From positions 1-33,237 of the forward strand of contig CAVERN010000002.1 of NCBI GenBank assembly GCA_963618095.1: 33,237 nt of DNA. Reading direction: 5' to 3'. A program made the translations under genes and the position numbers. Origin of the DNA: a bacterium. GTDB lineage: Bacteria; Verrucomicrobiota; Kiritimatiellia; RFP12; UBA1067. This document shows positions 371 to 16,761 of the stretch, in pieces; within the stretch, counting starts at the first letter, position 1; each line of letters opens with the position of its first letter. Under the pieces are notes generated by a model. The model worked only from the letters and a program-made list of their open reading frames with translations. It was not told where the DNA came from and did no database searches.

Positions 371-3300
371 TCACTGCTCGATTTCAACCTTGAAGAAGCC
401 CCTGGAGGCGTCCAGGCCCAGGTCGGAGAGCGCCTTCGTGAACACGGCGTCCACCGCGCCGTCCTCGACCGCGAACTCAACGGGCTCGCGCACCTCGCTC
501 CACTCGCCGCCGAGCGAGTCGGAGTACTTGACGACGAGCGTCGCCCTGACCTTGCCGTCCGAGACGAACAGCGTGCTGCCGGCGAGCGGGTCCTCCGCCT
601 CGGCGGACATCGCTATCGAGACCACGCCGTCCGCGAGCCCGAGCGACGTCACCGTGAGGGTCGAGCCCTTGATGGACGGCTCCACGGTGTCGACGGCCGA
701 GATGAGGGAGGCGAGGGACGCGCTCATGCGGCGGGAGGCGACGGACGCGAGCTGCACCGGCATTCCGCCGTTGACGAGGTCGGAGATCGCGCTCTCGAGG
801 TTCGGGTTCACCGTGATGTACCCGTTGTTCGCGTTCGTGGAGACGTTCTTCTTCTCGAGGAAGTTCGCCTTGGACGTGCCCGCGACGTCGTACTCGTAGA
901 CGTCAGGCAGGCAGTCCTGGTCGGTGTCGGCGTCCTCCACGTAGACCTTGGCGACGCCGGGGTTGACGCCGTAGCCCAGCGTGACGGCAAGCGGGGTGAA
1001 GATCGTCCCCGACGCCTCGCCGCTCGCGCGGGCGCAGAGGTAGCCCCACGACTCCCACTGGTCCTTCTCGAAGTCGCCGTCGCTGTCGAGATATGCGCGC
1101 ACGTAGTACGTGCCGGCGTCCAGCCCGCGGATGCGGGCGTTGACCGTGCCGTCCACGTTCGTCACGCTCGAGAGGTCTGCCACGAACGCGCGCCCGGCGG
1201 GGTCGCCCGTGAAGTCGGGCGTGGTGAACGCCTCGACGCGCAGGATTCCGGGCGTCTTGGACGAGAGCGCGCTGACGGCGCCCGGGCCGTAGTACTTGAC
1301 CAGCGCCTCGAGCGTGAACTTGCCGGCGGCGTTGACCTCGTCCTCGCCGTAGGCGTTCATGCGGAAGGTCCTCGCGTCGGACCAGCTGTCGGACTGGAAC
1401 TTCGAGTTGTACACCGACACCTGCCAGGTGTAGTTCGCCAGGTTCCTGAACACCGCGCCGAGGGAGGTCTGGTCGTCCACGTAGAGCGGAGGCGTCCACT
1501 CGTACGCGCCCGCGACGTTGCGCGGCGGCAGGCGGCGCTTGCCGGAGTTCCACACCACCTTGCCGGCGGAGTCCTTCACCTGGATCGCGAAGGCGGTGTA
1601 GGTGTCGGGACGGTCGCCCGCGATGCTCCACCTAAACGTCGGACGGGCGCCGTAGAACACGGCCTCCGTCGCCTCGGCCGAGACGGGCACGCCCTTCGCC
1701 TGGGTCCTGCCGAACTCGCGACTGAACTCGATGTACGGACGGCCCGACGGCGTCTTGATCTCCTGGACGACGTTCACCGGCTCGGAGTAGACGCGGTACG
1801 TGACGGACGTCACGGGCGAATAGTTCAGATTCACCTTCTTCATGACCTCGCTCTGGAAGTAGTTCCAGTCGATGTCGAGGTTGCCGTCCGAGAGGAAGTC
1901 GCCCTCGTGCAGGTAGTCGCGGCCGAGCACCTCCTTGCCGGCCACCATGCGGTTCGTCACCGCGGAGACCGTAGCATAGGCGTCGAGCAGATAGCGGTAC
2001 ACGTACACCATGCCGTTCGTCGCGCTCTCGGAGGAGGCGCTGTCGGTCTCGTTCGTGCTCACGAACGAGAGCGTCGGGCGCGAGCAGACCGGGCTCTCCG
2101 CCGTCATCTCAAGCTCGAGCGACGCGCCGCTCCAGCCAACGTCCACGCCGCTGACCACGCCCATCGGCTCGCCATCGGACCAGACGCCGTTCGAGTCGAG
2201 GTCGACGAACGCCACGAACGTGTTCTTGCCCTCGCGCACATGGCCCGAATCCGCTTCGGAGAGCGAGTACTCCCACTCGGACTCGCCCGCGACGCGGATG
2301 CTGTCCCACGTCACCTTCATGTAGCTCTTGGAGAGGTCGATGCGGGAGTACTCGTTGGAGACGCTCGGGCGGTAGAACGTGTAGACGCCGCTGCCGTCGT
2401 CCGAGTCCGACTCGCCGGAGGAGCTGGAGATGTAGTAGGCGTAGCCGGTCAGATCGGAGAGATTCAGCGTCAGCTCGCCGGTCTTGTAGGAGATCGTGCC
2501 CACGGAGTCGTTCAGCTTCACTATGTCGGCGGTCTCGACATTGCCCGCTCGCACGGACTCCACGAGCCCCTGGTGCCATTCCGTCGAGGCGGGATTGAGA
2601 AGCAGGAGGCTCCCGGTTCCGTCATTCTTGCACTCGGTCATGTCCCTGAACAGGATGTTGACCGAACCCGGCACCACGTAGCCCGGGCCGAGGTTGGCCG
2701 TGAGCGTGCCGGTTGCGGGATTCAGCCCGAGCATGCGCTCCATGGACTTCGTCTCCGAGGATCCGGGGATCGTCCAGGTGGCGTCGGCCTTCCTGAGCGA
2801 GGAGTCGGAGTACGCCTTCACCACGATCGGGGCGGAGATGTCCTCGGCGTCCTTGCAGAAGAGCTTCGCCTTGATCATCGGCACGGGATACTCGGCGAGG
2901 GACTCGCCGCCGGCCATGAGCTTGGCGGTGCGGTCGGGCATCGTGCCGGCGCGGCACTCGGCGTAGTTGCTCCAGCCGTCGGCGTCGTTGTCCCGGTGGG
3001 CGTCGTACGCCCCCGCCGTCACGTAGGCGTCGGAGAACCTGTCCTCCCACCAGTCCTCCATGAAGTCGTGGTCGGAGAAGAGCTCGCCGAGATAGAGGCG
3101 GCCCGCCCGGCGGAAGTAGTCGTACTCCTTGCCGTTCGTCATCGGCTTGGTCGGGTCAACCGTGCCGAACTTGAACACCTCGGAGACGAGGTACTCGGCC
3201 CAGTCCGCGAGGCCGTCCATGTCCTGGTCGTTGCGGCCTATTCCGTCAAGGCCGTACATCTTCTGCCACCAGTCCTTCACGCCGTCGCCGTTGGAGTCGG

Positions 3301-6300
3301 CCTTCGACGCGTACGCGGAGTCGACGGCGCCGCTCGGGAGCAGGCCTTCCGCGAGCGCGCGGAGGTAGGCCTCCACCGTCGTGTAGCCGAGGGCCTCCGC
3401 CCAGTCGGGGATGCTGTTGCCGTTCGCGTCCAGCACCTCGCCCGCGGCCGTGGTCTCGGCCCAGGCGTCCATCGCGCCCTGGCCGTCCCAGTAGTCCGTG
3501 CCGCGGCGCGCGAACGCGCCGCCGAGCGGCACGAGGTCGCTCGTGCCCACGAAGTCGCTGCGCAGCTGGAACTCGTAGCGCCTGGCGAGGAAGTCGCCGA
3601 TGCTGGAGGAGGCCGTCACCGCGAGGCGCGGGGCGGTGTAGAGCCGCATGTAGTGGTTGAAGCGGTCGCGGTTGTAGAAGTAGTACGGGTAGGGGTTCGC
3701 CGAGTTCGGGAACTCGTAGCGCTCCGCGTTCTGGAGGCCGGCGAGCACCATGTGGTACGCGGAGGCGACGCCTGCGGCGTGCTCGCTCCAGTACTGGGAG
3801 TCGGCGCACGAGCCGTCCATGAACGGCAGGTGGGCGACGGTGTTGCCGATCCACGGCACTATCGCGTGGTTGAGGTACACCTCGCTCTTCACGCCGCAGC
3901 CGTCCCACCAGCCGACGCGGAGGAAGCTGTCGAGCGTCTTGCCGTTCGGACGGCGCACGTTGTCCATCACCGCCGCCTGGAACCCGGTCGGCTCGGTCAT
4001 CACGCTCGATGCCTCGGCGGCGCCGGGCAGGGTGGTGAACGAGTAGTGCTGGAGCAGCTCCGCGGGGAGGGCGGCGCTGCCGTCTCCGCCGTTGCGCGTC
4101 GCGCCGTTGAGCCAGCGCCTGTACACGCTGTCGCGCAGGGCCGAGACATCGGCGAGGGTGTAGCGCTTGAGGTAGTCGGCGTTGATGTCGGCGGCCGAGC
4201 GGGCGCCGTCCCACACGCGCACCTCGTCGATCCAGCCCCGGAAGAAGGAGCCGTAGTCATCCCAGCTCGTCTCCTCGCCGAGGGTGAAGGCGCCGGCGCC
4301 GAGCGTCTTCGCGCCGAGCACGAACGAGCACGGGAGGGTGCGGTAGCCGATGAACGCCATTGCGGAGAGCCCGGCGTCCTGCAGGATGCCGTCCACGCCG
4401 TTGGCGGGCAGCACGCCCGCGCCGGAGACGGACGCGACCGGGGACATGGAGCCGTTCACGTAGAGCGCCGCCTTGGAGCCGTCGAAGGCGAAGGCCACGT
4501 GGGTCCACTTTCCGTCCTCGAGGGCCGCGCCGGTTGCGCGCACGGACGCGGAGCTGAGCGTGGAGCCCTCGAACTCGCCGTAGAGGCGGCCGGAGGCGTC
4601 GACGCCGATGCGGAAGTTGGCGCGGATCGCGGAGGTCGCGTTGGAGAGCGTGGACGCGCCGTAGTTGCAGACGCGCTCGAGGATCACCGCGTCGGACGCG
4701 GCGCCGTCGGGACGCACCCAGCACTCCACGGTGAACTGCTTGAGGAGGTCCGGCTCGGTGGCCGCGGCGCGGCGGAACTCGCCGTTGCGGGTGGCGGCGG
4801 CGGAGCCGACGCCGTCCACGAGGCCCGGCAGGTAGAGCGCCTGGCGGCAGTCGGGGTCGGTGAAGTCGAGCGGGTCGCTCGTCGCCTCGAGGCCGCGGGT
4901 GAGCTCAGTGGAGTCGCGCCTGAAGTCGTGGTCAGTGTCGAAGCCCTCGTTCTCCTCGAACGCGAACATCCACTCGGAGCTCCTCCCGCCCATGCCGTAG
5001 GCGGCGAGGCGGAGGCTCCACTTCATGTCGTCCCACGGGAAGCCGAAGATGTCCGGATACGAGGTGAGCGGGTCGTAGCCCTCGACCTCCTTGACGTACG
5101 GGTCGGGGTTGTAGTACTGCGAGGTGAAGCTCGCGAAGCTCCCGGACGTGGAGTCGGTCATCCACAGCGGGGTCGGGTCGGTGTGGGTGTACTGCGGCGA
5201 GGTGACGTTCGCCTTGATGGACTCCTCGTCGTTGCGCAGGCCGTCGCCGTCGGCGTCGCACTCCATCGTGCCGATCATCCACGGGTAGCGGATGGCGTCG
5301 AACGCGGGCTGCACGAGGTCGGTCGGCCAGCCGGTCCAGTAGTTGCTCCAGGAGGTGATCTTGCCGTTGTGGATGGAGGCGATCACGTCGTAGCGCAGGT
5401 TCGGGAAGCCGTACTCGTTCTCGCCGGACGGGTCGACCGCGCTTCCGAGCAGCGGGTTGAGGCCGTGGAAGAGCTCGTAGTAGTCGTCCATGCCGTCGTT
5501 GTCGGAGTCCCAGCGGCGCGGGTCGGTGGTGGCGTAGCGCATCGCGCCGTTGACGTAGTACCTCAGCACCGAGGTCGGGAGGAACCCGAGCGGCGGGAGC
5601 ATCACGCGGTAGCCCGCGCCCTCGGACTTCTCGTAGTTCGCGCACGCGCTCTGCCCCTGCGTGTTGAGCCGGAGCGGATCCCACTCGTGCGGCGGCAGGG
5701 TGAAGTAGCCGAGCTCGGAGAAGCGCCAGGTCGACAGGCCCGTGAAGCCGTTCGCGAGGCAGCGCTTGTGGAACGCCTCGCCGTCCCACGCGCTGAACGG
5801 GATGAACTTCACGAACTTCGCGTCAGTGAGGATGCCGTTCTCGGGGCTGGAGAGCGCCTGCACCGTGGACGGGTCGAGGCCCATCAGCGGGGTGGAGGGG
5901 TCGTCGTAGCGGAGGTGGCGCAGGGACTGCACGAGGTACTCCTGGCAGTTGACGAGGCCGTCGTGGTCGAAGTCGAGGCACGGGTCGCCGTTCCAGGTGC
6001 CGTCCATGCCGCCGCGGATCGCGTAGCCCGTCTCGGACACGGCGGACTGCTTGCCGTCGGCCTCCGTGAGGGTCGCGAGGTCGGTCGCGGAGAGGCCGGG
6101 GTCGGTCTCGGGCTTGCCGTCCTTGAACACGATGCCCGCGAACTGGAACTCCCAGGCGTCAGGCAGGAGGTCGCCGTCCGTGTCCACGGTGCAGGGGTTG
6201 AGGCCGCCGCCGCGGAAGCAGGTCGTCGTGCCGTCGAGCGCGTACTTCTCGGCGTTCTCCTCCTTGCCGTAGATGAACGAGAAGGTGCCGCTGTACTCGC

Positions 6301-9300
6301 TGCGGCCGACGTAGAGCGTGTCGCTCCAGCTGGAGCCCTCCGCGTCGTCCTTCACGCCGTCGCCGTCGGTGTCCATGTCGTACGGATTGGTCGGGAAGAA
6401 CTTGTTCCACCAGCCGAGCGTCTTTCCGGGATTGTTCTTCGTGATCGACTCGGCCTCGGGGAAGATCTCCGCCCCGTCCATGTCGAAGCGGTTGGTGTAG
6501 GCGTTGCAGGAATCGACGCCGGCGTACTCGGCGAGGAGCGTGAGCGCGTCCTTGTCGTCCGCCCAGCCGGACGCGAGCGTGGCGTCGTCGTGGTTGTTCG
6601 GGTCGGAGTTGACGTAGAGCTCCCAGCCGTCCGGGATGCCGTCGTAGTCCGTGTCCGCGCCGTGGACGTCGTGCTCCTGCTCAAGCCACTCCCAGTACGA
6701 CACGACCGTGCGGTTCGTGGAGTTGTCGAACGGGGAGACCTCGCTGCGGGCGGCGTACTGCTCGCGCACGAAGGTGACGGGCAGGTTCGGGTAGGTGGTC
6801 GCGGAGGTCATGTACGCGATTGTCGTCGGGGCGCCCTCGGCGACCAGGTACGCGTCGCCGCCATGGAGGAGCGACTCGGTCTCGGAGCGGGAGCCGTCCG
6901 ACCCGATCTTGCGCATCTGCTGGCGGTACTGCATCACGAGGTACTCGTCGCGGGAGGTGTAGGGGGCCGTCCTCACCGCGAGGCCCGCCTCGCCCTTCTG
7001 CGAGGCGCTGGTCACGAGGCCGTTCTCGCTGACGGTCGTCGGCTCCCAGCGCACGTCCACGTAGCCGTTGGCGTTGATGTTCCACGCGACGCGCGGGTCA
7101 AAGCCGTACTGGCTGAACACCTGGTTGTGGACGAGGGTGACCTTGTGCTTCTTCTCGACCTTCGAGACGGCGGGGCGCTCCACGCCGTTCTTGGGGTCGT
7201 CCCTGACCGGGGCCGCGGCGTAGTGCGCGGCGTTCGTGCCGCAGGGCACGTACGTCACGCCGTCGCCGCCGTAGTTGAAGAGAGGCAGCGCCTTCGCCGT
7301 CGACTCCGTCTCGAGCGTGACCGGGTTGCGCCAGGTGAAGCCGCCGGAGGGCCCGACCAGGCCCGCGCCGATCGCCATCACCCTCACCTGCGTCATCTGC
7401 GCGGGCGCGTCGGAGACCGCCGCGACGGGCGTGCCGGCGGGAAGCGTGATGGACTCGCCGAGGTAGAGCGAGCCGTCGTCGTGCTCGTACGTGCCGAAGC
7501 AGGCCGTGTCCACGGCGAGCATGAGCTGCCCAAGCCCGTTCGGGCCGACAAGGGCGGGCTTCGCCGCGCACCACACGTCCTCGGTCTTGGCCCCGGCGAT
7601 CCTCTTGACCAGGTAGTAGGCGGAGGCGACGGTCGCCTCCTCGGCGGCGTCGGAGGTCTCGGCGGCGTTCACCGCCGTGCCGGCGGCGACCGTCACGGGC
7701 TCGAGGTTGGCGAGATAGACGACGTCGCCAATCTTCACCGTCTGGAAGCACTGCGCGTCGGCGGTCAGCGCCGCGCCGTCGTGCTGGGCGGCCTCGACCG
7801 AGTAGTAGACCACGTCGCCGGAGGCGTCGGAGACGGTGAGCCGGTACACGTTCGTGGAGACGGAGACCGGATCGGCGGTGAACGTCGGGGACGTCTTCGT
7901 GGGCAGGGCGAAGATCTCGCCGTTCGAGAACGTGTAGACCGTGAACGTGTCGCCGTCGTACTCGCAGCGCGCCATGAAGTCGCAGTCGGGGTTGTCCGCC
8001 CCGTCCTTCGCGTTGAGCGGGTCGAGGCCGTTCATCACCTCCCAGAGGTCGTTGACGCCGTCGCCGTCGGAATCCCAGTCGACCGGGTTCGTGCCGAGCG
8101 CGAACTCCTCGAGGTCGGTGAGGCCGTCGTTGTCGGTGTCGCGGTCGATGGAGCCCCTCTCGAGCGGGTTGAACGCCGCGGCGATCTCCTCGGGCGCGAT
8201 GCGGGCGGAGGAGGCCGGGGAGGCGATGGAGTACCTGCGGCCCTCGAGCCTGCCCCACACGCCGTTCGTCACCGCGCCGACCTTGGCGTAGTACCAGAAG
8301 TAGTACTCCCAGCCGTCGCTGAAGCCGTCGCCGTCCGTGTCCGCCTTCGCCGGGTTCAGGCGCACGCCGCCCTCCTGCCAGGCCTCGGGCGTCCACTTCG
8401 CCCCGGTCGCCCAGTTCGTCGCGGCGACGTAGTCGGCGGCGGCGACGCCCGTGAGCGAGTTGCCGGCGGACACGAAGTCGGAGAGCAGCGCGTAGCGCTC
8501 CGCCTCGCTGAGGTCGTAGTCGGAGACTCCCGGCTCGTTGAGGCCGCTGTGCATGCCGCGGATCTCGTAGAGGGCGTCGAACGGGACGCCCGGGCCCCAG
8601 TCGAGGGTCGTGGGCTTCAGCGGGTTGGCGGAGCCGGCCGCCGCCGGGAAGAAGTCCAGGTCGCCGTTGTACGCGGAGATGTCCGCGAGGTCCGCGTCCG
8701 AAACCTCGCCCTCGTCGCCCTCGCCGCCCTCGGCGGAGCCGCCGCTGACGATCTCGCAGAGGCGCGCGGTCTCGCCGGCGTCGCTCGTCCAGGTGCGCAC
8801 GGCGTAGGCGTCGGGGATGCCGTCGGCGTTGATGTCGCCCATGTTGTCCGCCACGTACTTCTCGCGGGAGAAGATCGCGAGGGCCATCGTGTCGGGATAG
8901 GTGTACTCGGTCTGCGTGGACGGCAGCGTGATCATCGTCTCGCCCTTCCTGCCCGGCGCGGGCGAGCCGGCGGTCCAGGTGGTCTCGGAGGAGGAGCCGG
9001 ACGACGACGAGGAGGACGACGAGCTGGAGTCGCTGCTCGGCACGTACTTGAACCAGCGGTAGAAGAAGCTGTCGTAGAGGCTGTCGTTCCTGTAGTGCGG
9101 GGCGTCGGTGCCGTCGCCGGTCTCGTTCGGGGCGGAGGACTTGCCCACGGACGTGGACTCGTCCGTCTCGCCGGCGGCGTAGCCCTGGCCGTAGACGGAC
9201 GCGGAGCGGGAGCTCGTGCCGTACGTCCAGGTGTGCCTGAAGGACGTGATGGAGCCGAAGTTGCCGTCCGCCCACACGCGGCCCACGCCGCGGCCGGGCT

Positions 9301-12300
9301 GGGTGAGGTACTTGGCGATCGCGTCGCTGTCAACCGCCGCGACGGAAGGCCCGTACGGATAGAGGAACACGTTCTTGGACGTCTCCACGAAGAACCAGAT
9401 GACCTTGCTGGAGGCTACGTCGCCGTCCTTGTCCGTCGCGGTGATCTTGAGCTTGTTGATGCCGGGCGTCTCGAACCACACGCTGAATATGCCGCTGCTC
9501 TCGTTCGTCACGGTGCCGATCTCGTGGCCGCCGATCACGGCGCACGTCACGAGCAGGTTGGTCGACCCGTGGTTGGAGGCCACGAGGTCGCCGTCTACGT
9601 CGCTCACGCTCCACCTGAAGTTGAAGTGCTCGTTCGGGGCGTACGTCACGCCCATCATGGCGTTCGTCTCCGTGTCCTGCCCCTCGTAGTCGGGGTCGAC
9701 GGTGATCGCGGGCTTGGTGTTCTGGAGGCGGAAGTAGTTCGTGGAGACCGTGTAGAGCTCGTTCCACGGGGTGCCGCTCGGGCTGGCGCCGGTGGACGTC
9801 ACCTTCGCGACCAGGCGGTAGAGCTGCGGCTTCTTGACGAGCCCGCGGCCGAGGTAGGTGCCGTCGAAGCCGACGAACGCGAAGCTGTTGGAGTAGGCGT
9901 TGCGCGTGAACTTGAACTCCCTCTTCGAGATCTCGGGCGCGACGTCCGTGTCCGCCGCAGCCGGCGCGTAGCTGTTGTCGAGGGCCTCAATCGCCACCTC
10001 GACCTGCACGCTGCCGAAGCCCGTTATGTTCGGGCTCGAGTTGAGCCCTACCGAGAAGCCCATCGGCTCGCCGGCGAGGAGGTCGCCCTCGGTGAAGACC
10101 GGCACGCCGTCCGACCCGGAGGTGAACGTGCCGTAGGGATTCGTGTCGACGTACGGGTTCCTGTCGATCTGCAGCTCGAACACGTACGCGTCGCCCCAGT
10201 CGTTGCCGGGGTTGAGCGAGTCGCCCTCCGGGTACGCCGAGACGGCCGTGCCGCTCATGTCGAGGCCCTTCCAGGGGTCGTAGACCCACTTCGCGCCGTC
10301 GTAGTAGAGGTAGTCCGGCTTGTTGCCGCGCATGTCCTTGTCCTGGGCGCGCACGGAGAACTGGTACTCGCCGCAGAAGGCCTCGTCGAGCTGGTCAGTG
10401 CCGAACATGTCCCTCATGTCGAGGGTGCTGTCGAGGCCGACGGTGTAGTACACGAGGTTCGGCTTCTCGGGGTACTTCCCGCTGTCGTCCTTCTGGCGGA
10501 CCTCCCAGGAGTAGACGACCTGGGCGGCGTCCGCGCCCGCCTTGTCGGCGTCCACGTCGGAGAGCTGGCTCACGCGGAACGTGCGCATCGGGTCGCTCAG
10601 GCTCATCACGATCCTATCGGTCGCGAGCTTGTCCTGGGCGGTCGCGTTGTTCCTGGCGCGGACCTCGGTTATCACGGGGAAGTTGTTCGTGACGTCGATC
10701 ACGAGCGTGTTCTCGGTGAACTCCGTGATGCGGCTGGCGGGATTCCAGACCTCCGAGGAGCAGAGCTTTATGTTGTAGACGAAGTGGCCGGAGTCGTTGT
10801 CGTAGAACCTGAGGCCGTTCCCGCTCGTGAGCGCGTCGGAGACCGCCGCGAGCGCCCCGCTCGAGAACGGAACGCCCCGGCCCGCGGAGCCGCGCGCCGC
10901 CTCGTCGACGGTGTTCGTGGTGAAGAACGCGGCGTAGGAGAGGTTCCTCGCGGCGTCGTTCGCGGGCTCGAGGTAGGCGTAGAGGGAGCTCGCGCTCGCC
11001 GTCTCGGAGAGCGTGAACGTCACGCTCTGCACGCCGCCCTCGCCGACGATCGGGGCCGAGATCGCCGCGGACACGTTCTTGGGCTGCCTGACGTAGACGT
11101 AGAACGCGCGCTCGGACGTGCGGCCGTCGGAGTTCGTCACCTTGATGGTGGTGTTCATGTTCTGGTCGGCCGAGGGGACGGGATACGACACCGGCACGTA
11201 GAGGACGCCGTCCTCGTCCGGCACGAGCGGATTGCCGTCCGCGTCCCTGTCAATCACGATCTTGGCGCCGCCCTCGTACTGCCACGTCACCTTGAAGGCG
11301 CCGTTCGTGCCGTCCAGCCCGAACATGTTGCGGTACGTGTCGCTGACGCGCACCTCGAAGACCGTCTCCACGCCGCCGCGGATCGAGAGGGCGGAGTTCG
11401 TGGCGGACGAGGCGATGTCCGCCGGGGCGTAGCCGTTCACGCTGACGATCTCGGGCTTCGTGCCGTACACCGTGAGGGTGAGGGGCTTGACGGTGAAGTA
11501 CGCGGCCATCGCCGGGTCGTCGAAGTACGGGGTGACCACGATCCTGTCGCCCTTCACGCCGGAGGTGAGCGCTCCGAGGGCGTACAGGGCCTTCGGGTTC
11601 GCGGGGTCCTCGGTCGACTCGGTCTCGCCGGACGGTATCGTCACGGAGAGCGGAAGGCCGTCCGTGTAGCCGCCCTCCTGGCTGGCCGAGATGGCGATCA
11701 GGCCGTCGGGGATCGCCTCCTCGCCGTTCACCTCGTACTTGAGCTTGACCTCTACCGGGTCGTCGGCGGTCCAGGCCTGCGTGAGCTCGACCTTGAACGG
11801 AATGGTGTTCGTGTAGTCGGAGGTCGCGTTGATCGTGCACGCGGAGGCGCCGTTGGCGAGCACGGTGACGGTCGGGGCGAGCGGATCGAGGCACGCGACG
11901 GTGCGGGAGACGAAGTTCGTGATCGTCCTGCCGCTCGCGCTCGTTATGTTCGTGAGGGTGGAGGAGAGGAAGAGCTCGGTGGAGGTGCCCCTCGTCACGC
12001 CGCGGAGGCGGAACTGGAGGCTCGCGTCGCTGCCGTCGATCGTGAGCTTGAGCACGCGGGTGGAGCCCACCACGTACTGCGCGTCGGGAAGCACCACGGA
12101 GTTGGTGTCGGCGGTCCAGAGGTACACGGACCCGCTGTAGTCGCCGGCGAGCTCGCCGGGGATCGCGAGCGAGGGCACGAACTCCTTCGTGCTCGTGGAG
12201 CGCTCGTGCACGGCGCGCCAGACGGGGTTGCCGGCGGCGTCGCTCTCTGCGTTGGAGTCGAAGTCGATGGACTTGACGAAGATGCCGGCGTTGAAGAGCG

Positions 12301-16745: not shown

Positions 16746-16761
16746 GAGGAAATGTAATGGG

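Follow-up and report, generated by a model that had tools for sequence, protein, structure and literature searches.

The stretch of DNA analysed here, called the window throughout, comprises 33,237 nucleotides (nt) of contig CAVERN010000002.1 (assembly GCA_963618095.1) from a bacterium of the Kiritimatiellia (Verrucomicrobiota; RFP12; UBA1067), and it encodes on its minus strand, one directly after the other, a cysteine protease precursor of family C10, a small lipoprotein and a giant exported protein of 4,221 amino acids (aa). A first-pass annotation had taken these three genes for one functional module in which the protease would process the giant and the lipoprotein would act as inhibitor, chaperone or membrane tether. 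The comparison of related loci modestly favours another organisation, namely an envelope module that is co-inherited among uncultured Kiritimatiellia of gut and rumen and is not built as protease, inhibitor and substrate. Its constant unit, as predicted from sequence and structure models, is a gene for a membrane-anchored helical hairpin of about 100 aa, followed within about 30 nt by a gene for a non-repetitive TSP3/LamG giant of 4,000–10,000 aa; the gene ahead of this pair apparently varies by lineage and encodes a C10 protease, a glycine-rich protein of about 3,000 aa or nothing related. The functional unity of the three genes was upheld in that the triad is co-inherited, and cut back in that the protease is limited to one lineage and the core consists of the small gene and the giant.

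Reading of the sequence confirmed the three open reading frames (ORFs) and both of the start/stop overlaps by which they had been joined. Such overlaps are ordinary in the window, where neighbouring genes likewise overlap or lie 17–18 nt apart, and the case for a module therefore rests on comparison with other genomes. A scan baited with the protease, using one genome per species, yielded 77 loci; almost all belong to metagenome-assembled genomes (MAGs) of Kiritimatiellia type from gut or rumen. The small gene and the giant follow downstream in 22 of the 26 loci (with room downstream) whose protease matches the query beyond the C10 domain, as against none of the 29 paralogue loci that match over the prodomain and C10 domain only (Fisher p = 1e-11); therefore, it is the C-terminal module of the protease, not its catalytic domain, that goes with the giant. 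The triad adjoins protease homologues of 51, 46, 34, 33 and 31% identity with unrelated upstream neighbours each time, and the co-occurrence in relatives that the first-pass annotation had named as a check was thus found in orthologue-type loci down to about 30% identity. In these relatives the order is protease, a protein of 120–178 aa and a giant of 4,000–10,600 aa; the 1-nt overlap of the small gene with the protease stop is kept in the closer relatives, and one clade has one or two additional genes for Flg_new-repeat proteins, always in the gap between protease and small gene and never between small gene and giant.

Three of the four exceptions among the 26 loci, L038 included, end at the limit of the available sequence inside a Flg_new protein, and the fourth is locus L046. 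At positions 9875–14867 of L046, two C10 genes stand in tandem, the second with clear Inhibitor_I69 and Peptidase_C10 matches, and large ORFs containing DUF642 and Flg_new_2 domains occupy the place of the small gene and the giant. In L038 (7331–11163), from a horse-faeces MAG, inserted DUF3987 primase-like and HU-type DNA-binding genes, of the kind usual in mobile elements, part the Flg_new protein from the protease. Three contigs with a protease and giant of this Kiritimatiellia type (L019, L037 and L039), deposited as Limosilactobacillus gorillae, Lachnospiraceae bacterium and Clostridiales bacterium CCNA10, are probably mislabelled bins. Several other C10 paralogues occur within the protease-baited genomes.

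To avoid the bias that a protease bait introduces, the N-terminal 750 aa of the giant were used as bait in a metagenome scan, which returned 63 loci. A match to the hidden Markov model (HMM) of the small protein lies directly upstream of the giant start in 53 of them, and six more showed on inspection a small helical ORF that is divergent but has a lipobox or hydrophobic anchor, which brings the loci with a small gene of this type ahead of the giant to about 59 of 63. Upstream of the pair, a C10 protease is encoded in 12 loci and a homologue of a glycine-rich giant (~3,000 aa) in 32; at least three loci (L121, L156 and L159) have unrelated housekeeping genes there, namely M50 peptidase/YchF/beta-lactamase-like, D-Ala-D-Ala-ligase-like/GNAT and fucose kinase genes. 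Similarly, each of five distant small-protein homologues (20–28% identity) that could be placed on contigs is followed within 10 nt by a large ORF, which is collinear with the window giant in four cases and encodes a glycine-rich protein in one; no C10 gene was found in these five loci.

The glycine-rich proteins form a second huge-protein family of 2,900–3,400 aa, with an N-terminal Gly_rich_2 domain and sometimes LamG_3, encoded directly upstream of the small gene in most giant-bearing loci and overlapping its start by 11–17 nt. At L096 (1–10011) and L100 (1417–10017), the upstream gene encodes a Gly_rich_2 protein of 2,866–3,394 aa, with a LamG_3 domain in L096, and overlaps the start of the small gene; the family recurs at about 30 further loci among L122–L163. 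The contigs of L097 and L101 break off within the upstream gene, a large ORF without a Pfam family. Homology of the C10 protease to the glycine-rich protein that takes its position was considered and rejected, as none is detectable.

At the junction of small gene and giant, the sequence AAATGAAGRAGGGTGCAnnnATG, and with it the whole 21-nt junction block, is conserved as DNA in seven relatives; in it a Shine-Dalgarno-like block (GGAGGG/GAAGGG) precedes the second in-frame ATG of the giant gene. The methionine encoded by this ATG (13018–13016) is invariant across 11 giant homologues in an N-terminal alignment, and its equivalent is the called giant start in relatives L011 and L013. The true start of the giant may lie at this ATG, 14 nt past the lipoprotein stop; whichever start is used, small gene and giant are coupled within 14 nt. 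The coordinates of these and the other features are collected in Table 1.

Table 1. Features of the C10 protease, small lipoprotein and giant-protein genes and of adjoining DNA, in window coordinates
Feature	Position	Strand	Basis or detail
C10 (streptopain-family) cysteine protease precursor, 1,092 aa	13398–16676	minus	Pfam, phmmer, AlphaFold2, Foldseek
Protease signal peptide, aa 1–25	16602–16676	minus	
Protease prodomain, aa 28–135	16272–16595	minus	Foldseek zymogen alignments
C10 catalytic domain, aa 198–445	15342–16085	minus	Cys237 15966–15968, His393 15498–15500
Non-catalytic C-terminal module of protease, aa 450–1092	13401–15329	minus	AlphaFold2, Foldseek, Pfam of homologues
Small lipoprotein, 121 aa	13033–13398	minus	Translation, alignments, AlphaFold2
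Lipobox LSGC, then GC	13339–13350	minus	Within small lipoprotein
Alpha-helical hairpin of small lipoprotein, aa 39–120	13039–13284	minus	AlphaFold2
Giant exported protein, 4,221 aa	371–13036	minus	Signal peptide aa 1–28; translation
Conserved N-terminal region of giant, aa 29–750	10787–12952	minus	Alignment; no recognisable family
TSP3 region of giant, aa 1566–3360	2957–8341	minus	11 DxDxDGxxDxxE motifs; contains core and LamG
LamG/ConA-like domain of giant, aa 2764–2875	4412–4747	minus	Laminin_G_3
Protease/lipoprotein junction TGATG	TGA 13400–13398, ATG 13398–13396	minus	Sequence read
Lipoprotein/giant junction ATGA	ATG 13036–13034, TGA 13035–13033	minus	Sequence read
Small gene–giant junction block	13016–13036	minus	ATGA 13036–13033 and second in-frame ATG 13018–13016, with Shine-Dalgarno-like GAAGGGTG ahead
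Intergenic gap 5' of protease gene	16677–16761	minus	85 nt, 41% GC; GGTGA ahead of start codon
Acetate-kinase-like gene, 5' part (MKRKIRKVLVVNSGSSSLKYE...)	1–366	minus	Start 4 nt past the giant's stop

Each product of the three genes contains exactly one hydrophobic segment, N-terminal in every case, which together with the lipobox of the small protein bears out the export signals annotated for all three. The small protein is laid out as signal peptide, lipobox, a short linker with RMxDPxY and a helical hairpin, and across its family the N-terminal hydrophobic segment, the lipobox cysteine, RMxDPxY and a VRxRI motif are conserved; the few members without the lipobox cysteine would be helix-anchored or released. 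An AlphaFold2 model (predicted local distance difference test, pLDDT, 80) places two helices at aa 39–69 and 77–120. A Foldseek search with this model returned nothing better than E 0.46, the top matches being generic hairpins, e.g., of membrane-fusion proteins, and no Pfam or NCBIfam family was matched by the small protein, nor by any of 50 relatives. A profile search among 1.8 billion representatives recovered 116 family members, which are stand-alone proteins of 85–210 aa except for one 1,240-aa match with eight short matched stretches. In the close clade, Cys22 (in the GC after the lipobox) and Cys89 (in helix 2) are invariant besides the lipobox Cys20, and distant members lack Cys89; these residues could conceivably serve in a disulfide or in a link to the cysteine protease. 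A tether like Braun's lipoprotein (Lpp), bound to peptidoglycan through a strictly conserved C-terminal lysine, was also considered, as close relatives end in ...LKK, and was rejected, as the ends of 50 members vary (KGN, KGE, KGK or longer tails).

The giant had been described as a TSP3/LamG protein, and both Pfam profiles match it above threshold (TSP3_bac, 57.4 bits, cut-off 25, E 1e-15; Laminin_G_3, 80 bits, cut-off 27.6, E 3e-22), in line with its scattered calcium-binding motifs; on the strength of these motifs, it may fairly be supposed to bind calcium. A phmmer search with the whole giant found the LamG domain of pappalysin-2 as its sole match, a weak Ig-like match lies near the C-terminus, and about 80% of the protein has no recognisable Pfam domain, the segment aa 29–750 included. 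A profile search of the N-terminal 750 aa against the PDB gave nothing below E 0.27. The protein is very acidic (net charge −256), and neither tandem repeats nor a hydrophobic segment beyond the N-terminal one was found in it. Its homologues are collinear in all related loci compared, with the best-conserved core at aa ~2000–3100 (43% identity in distant relatives) and variable segments around aa 800–1000 and 1700–1950. A search for homologues of the last 150 aa returned one fragment only; therefore, this end is not a widespread sorting tag. A C-terminal sorting domain common to protease and giant was likewise considered and rejected (BLAST, a weak E 0.038; profile of 44 C-termini, E 0.13). 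Among conspecific MAGs the giant measures 4,216, 4,220 or 4,221 aa; in one of them (L009, GCA_963619165.1), no giant was called at 3717–13717, where short opposite-strand ORFs stand instead, which could be a gene disruption or an assembly or annotation artefact.

The protease was confirmed as a C10 enzyme of zymogen type. It matches the full Pfam profile Peptidase_C10 (PF01640) over aa 214–424 with 73.8 bits (cut-off 26); the profile is also matched by all 44 of its homologues, whose source names read as Kiritimatiellae C10 peptidases. In a phmmer alignment to SpeB, Cys237 (GCVATA) and His393 (GGHAVV) fall on the catalytic residues; both are invariant, and Trp416 nearly so, in the 44 homologues of 30–69% identity. 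The first-pass annotation had offered loss of this Cys/His dyad as a ground for refutation; as the dyad is invariant, catalysis is under selection, and the protease looks functional from its residues and its model. The AlphaFold2 model built from the 44-homologue alignment (mean pLDDT 84) finds its best Foldseek matches in prointerpain A (3bb7, E 1.5e-10) and the SpeB zymogen (1dki, E 8e-10), with alignments of about 400–440 columns that span prodomain and catalytic domain, and it displays the papain-like fold with N-terminal inhibitory prodomain of a C10 zymogen. Pfam Inhibitor_I69 was matched weakly in five of the 44 homologues and was not detected in the window protease itself. The gene calls of MAGs start the protease at Met3 (16670).

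The C-terminal module of about 650 aa consists, in order, of a beta-sandwich, a thioredoxin-like domain, InlB-B-repeat/Ig-like domains, an (EP)n linker and a terminal beta-sandwich; Flg_new_2 was matched in this module in two of the 44 homologues. The thioredoxin-fold domain (aa ~514–690) lacks CXXC and resembles PDI a', AGR3 and DsbH-like proteins (Foldseek probability 0.99). The linker (13689–13745) is encoded by a CTCGGG hexamer repeat detected with Tandem Repeats Finder, and its EP copy number differs among conspecific MAGs, with eight copies in the window, seven in L001–L003 and L006, and six in L004, L005 and L007–L009; this variation is an in-frame length polymorphism.

The window has a GC content of 68%, and all of its 12 real genes lie on the minus strand with short gaps. 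The minus strand was taken as the coding strand because GC content at third codon positions reaches 0.89–0.97 in its frames, compared with about 0.6 in the overlapping plus-strand mirror ORFs. The nine genes outside the module serve DNA repair and sugar metabolism or encode TPR proteins. On the same strand, 5' of the module, genes for DNA repair and recombination form a run at 16762–30201; it includes a UvrD-type helicase and a PD-(D/E)XK nuclease (AddA/AddB-like, overlapping), RmuC, RecD2 and RecA, with a TPR protein and a GFO/IDH/MocA oxidoreductase scattered among them. The gap between this run and the protease gene had been called the only AT-rich gap of this half of the window; it is the lowest-GC spot, but low-GC spots also lie at 279–428 and 12991–13081. 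The promoter-like letters reported in it are present, TTGTTT (16745–16740) being separated by 17 nt from TAAACT (16722–16717), but only 7 of the 12 positions in these hexamers agree with the sigma-70 consensus, and they lie below the threshold of the promoter scan, which reported no sigma-70-like site and is uninformative for this phylum. A promoter presumably lies in this gap. Terminator-like hairpins occurred at chance level in the terminator scan, which is uninformative for this phylum as well, and that scan placed none between the giant stop and the gene at 1–366, which is taken to be an acetate kinase from a reading of its N-terminal motif. This gene probably shares the transcript of the giant; given the 4-nt spacing and the missing hairpin, a central-metabolism gene may thus ride on the long transcript of the module. 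An exact look-up of the window giant gave no record, and the loci retrieved from relatives end ahead of the 3' ends of their giants.

Large proteins of related composition have been described elsewhere. The giant resembles Myxococcus CglD/MtsD and the thrombospondin signature domain in combining scattered DxDxDG type 3 repeats with a ConA-like lectin fold. It differs from CglD/MtsD-type TSP3 proteins in that no VWA domain was found in it, and against the CglD and MtsD models of NCBIfam it scores 31 bits (cut-off 400) and 29 bits (cut-off 800), over the TSP3 stretch only, so that it is not a member. According to the accessible part of a preprint on the Planctomycetes–Verrucomicrobia–Chlamydiae (PVC) superphylum and the Omnitrophota, these groups encode very large exported proteins, some with bacterial TSP3 repeats; C39 and S8 peptidase domains occur there as fusions within single proteins of >30,000 aa, of which many are repetitive, and peptidase activity is proposed to process the giants (bioRxiv 10.1101/2023.11.21.568195). 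Compared with the giants covered in that part of the preprint, the protease here is a separate gene, the giant is non-repetitive and a dedicated small partner is constant; the same part makes no mention of a lipoprotein or operon alongside giants (bioRxiv 10.1101/2023.11.21.568195). A literature search found no paper linking Kiritimatiellia to a C10 protease, adhesin or giant-gene module, and the module is apparently undescribed.

The arrangement at the locus invites comparison with operons that pair a protease with its inhibitor, and the same observations bear on the rival reading in which the C10 protease would have the small lipoprotein as its cognate inhibitor, or as an inhibitor-like chaperone, and the giant as its substrate. 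The window shares with SpeB–Spi, Bfp–Bfi and staphopain–staphostatin a secreted papain-like cysteine protease zymogen, here of family C10. The C10/C47 protease genes are co-transcribed with neighbouring small inhibitor genes, some of which encode lipoproteins (PMC2873492). The small lipoprotein gene of the window similarly adjoins its protease, probably on one transcript, with the 1-nt overlap kept in closer relatives. However, the predicted all-alpha hairpin has two long helices where staphostatins and Bfi form a lipocalin-like barrel (PMC2873492), and it is unlike the alpha/beta prodomain to which Spi and I69 propeptides are related; no Pfam match was obtained in 50 members. Staphostatins and Bfi also co-occur with their cognate proteases, whereas the small-protein family stands mostly without any C10 gene and adjoins giants in C10-free loci; in some loci Flg_new genes part the small gene from the protease, and the C10 paralogues of the same genomes have no such neighbour. 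Moreover, the protease here is three times longer than those of the C10/C47 operons and carries its C-terminal module, and the unit includes a 4,221-aa gene that the small protein tracks. A cognate inhibitor is consequently improbable, and the annotated inhibitor role finds no support in fold, family or gene linkage. Adjacency without common function, i.e., neighbours in a compact single-strand region that share a promoter, would fit the uniform strand of all 12 window genes, their short gaps and the closeness of the acetate-kinase-like gene to the giant; yet the triad persists down to 30% identity while its flanking genes change completely, and the small gene–giant pair persists over a still wider range. 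The synteny statistics largely refute such an explanation, protein identities of 25–70% speak against a recently transferred island, and coincidence of this kind is very improbable.

Two further explanations leave the small protein with the giant and differ in what the protease would do. LapG is a transglutaminase-like protease, not a C10 enzyme, and LapA, which has a signal at its C-terminus and a retention module at its N-terminus, leaves the cell by type 1 secretion. The window resembles the LapA–LapG–LapD system in that an exported giant that binds calcium is genetically coupled to a dedicated cysteine protease and to a third, membrane-bound component, and by analogy a Lap-like logic of regulated cleavage is plausible (PMC3032545). 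Here the giant bears its Sec signal at the N-terminus, a hairpin of 100 aa stands as third component, the protease is C10, and neither type 1 secretion genes nor a GGDEF/EAL receptor occur in the window; the module has none of the defining Lap features beyond the broad scheme of a giant protein with a dedicated cysteine protease. Cleavage of the giant by the C10 protease, for maturation or shedding and with recognition through the C-terminal module, would accord with the linkage of only those proteases that carry this module, with the selection on catalysis implied by the invariant dyad, and with the established principle of a dedicated cysteine protease controlling a giant adhesin (PMC3032545). 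Most giants of the family, however, have no linked protease, and therefore C10 cleavage cannot be a general maturation step; in addition, no region of the giant was found to be specific to the protease-linked clade, the same segments being conserved or variable in both, no cleavage motif is predictable, and the window holds no LapD-like regulator. Such cleavage is possible, though rather doubtful. Alternatively, the protease might attack external host or dietary proteins while co-expressed with, or docked on, a giant that serves as adhesin or scaffold and not as substrate. The non-protease glycine-rich/LamG protein that fills the same position in sister lineages suggests interchangeable displayed partners, the InlB-B-repeat/Ig-like and thioredoxin-like domains of the protease are of binding type, and the several other C10 paralogues in these genomes fit a digestive repertoire; but a general digestive enzyme needs no strict one-to-one synteny, and no docking domains common to protease and giant were found by BLAST or by the profile of C-termini. 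Display of this kind is on the whole rather unlikely.

The organisation favoured here, a co-inherited envelope module around the small gene–giant pair, builds on the observed gene order, conservation, family and fold assignments and catalytic-residue conservation. Because the constant unit consists of the small hairpin protein and the giant, the former is most plausibly a membrane-tethered partner of the giant itself, i.e., an anchor, holdase or assembly factor; of the roles annotated for it, chaperone or membrane tether fits better than inhibitor, as a partner of the giant and not of the protease. The protease is probably an accessory peculiar to its lineage, working on the giant complex or beside it, since linkage to the giant is confined to proteases that have the C-terminal module. 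All three products would cross the inner membrane through Sec. Its lipid, or in some relatives a hydrophobic helix that is not cleaved off, would keep the small protein at the membrane, and its hairpin would bind the giant in order to hold, anchor or assemble it; the protease would leave as a SpeB-like zymogen and lose its prodomain, its 650-aa C-terminal module would work at the giant complex, and it might then trim or release the giant or use it as a platform against external proteins. More tentatively, the locus may represent an undescribed envelope system in which the hairpin of about 100 aa is a new anchoring or assembly factor for a Sec-exported giant, and in which the front position supplies interchangeable partners that are mounted on the giant or act on it.

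Several points weigh against this organisation. The hairpin is a generic fold without functional signature, and the physical interactions, cellular location and protease substrate assumed above are deduced. The pair is not absolute, in that no small gene was found in four of the 63 giant-baited loci (L128, L133, L142 and L150) and that at L098 a small-protein homologue precedes a glycine-rich protein, not a TSP3 giant. As protease and glycine-rich protein are not detectably homologous, their common position need not mean a common role, and gene adjacency is weaker evidence in a dense single-strand region than in one of mixed strands.

Kiritimatiellia are common and uncultured members of animal and human gut communities, and to our knowledge almost nothing has been established about their cell surface. 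A 12.7-kb gene that stays collinear from about 25 to 75% identity, together with its tiny partner, marks a costly structure under selection. For the question of how diderm bacteria export and hold giant proteins that depend on Sec, the small partner provides a concrete and testable handle. At the same time, a small lipoprotein that adjoins a C10 protease should not be named an inhibitor by position alone, and the C10 subfamily that bears the large C-terminal module may comprise proteases each devoted to one giant partner.

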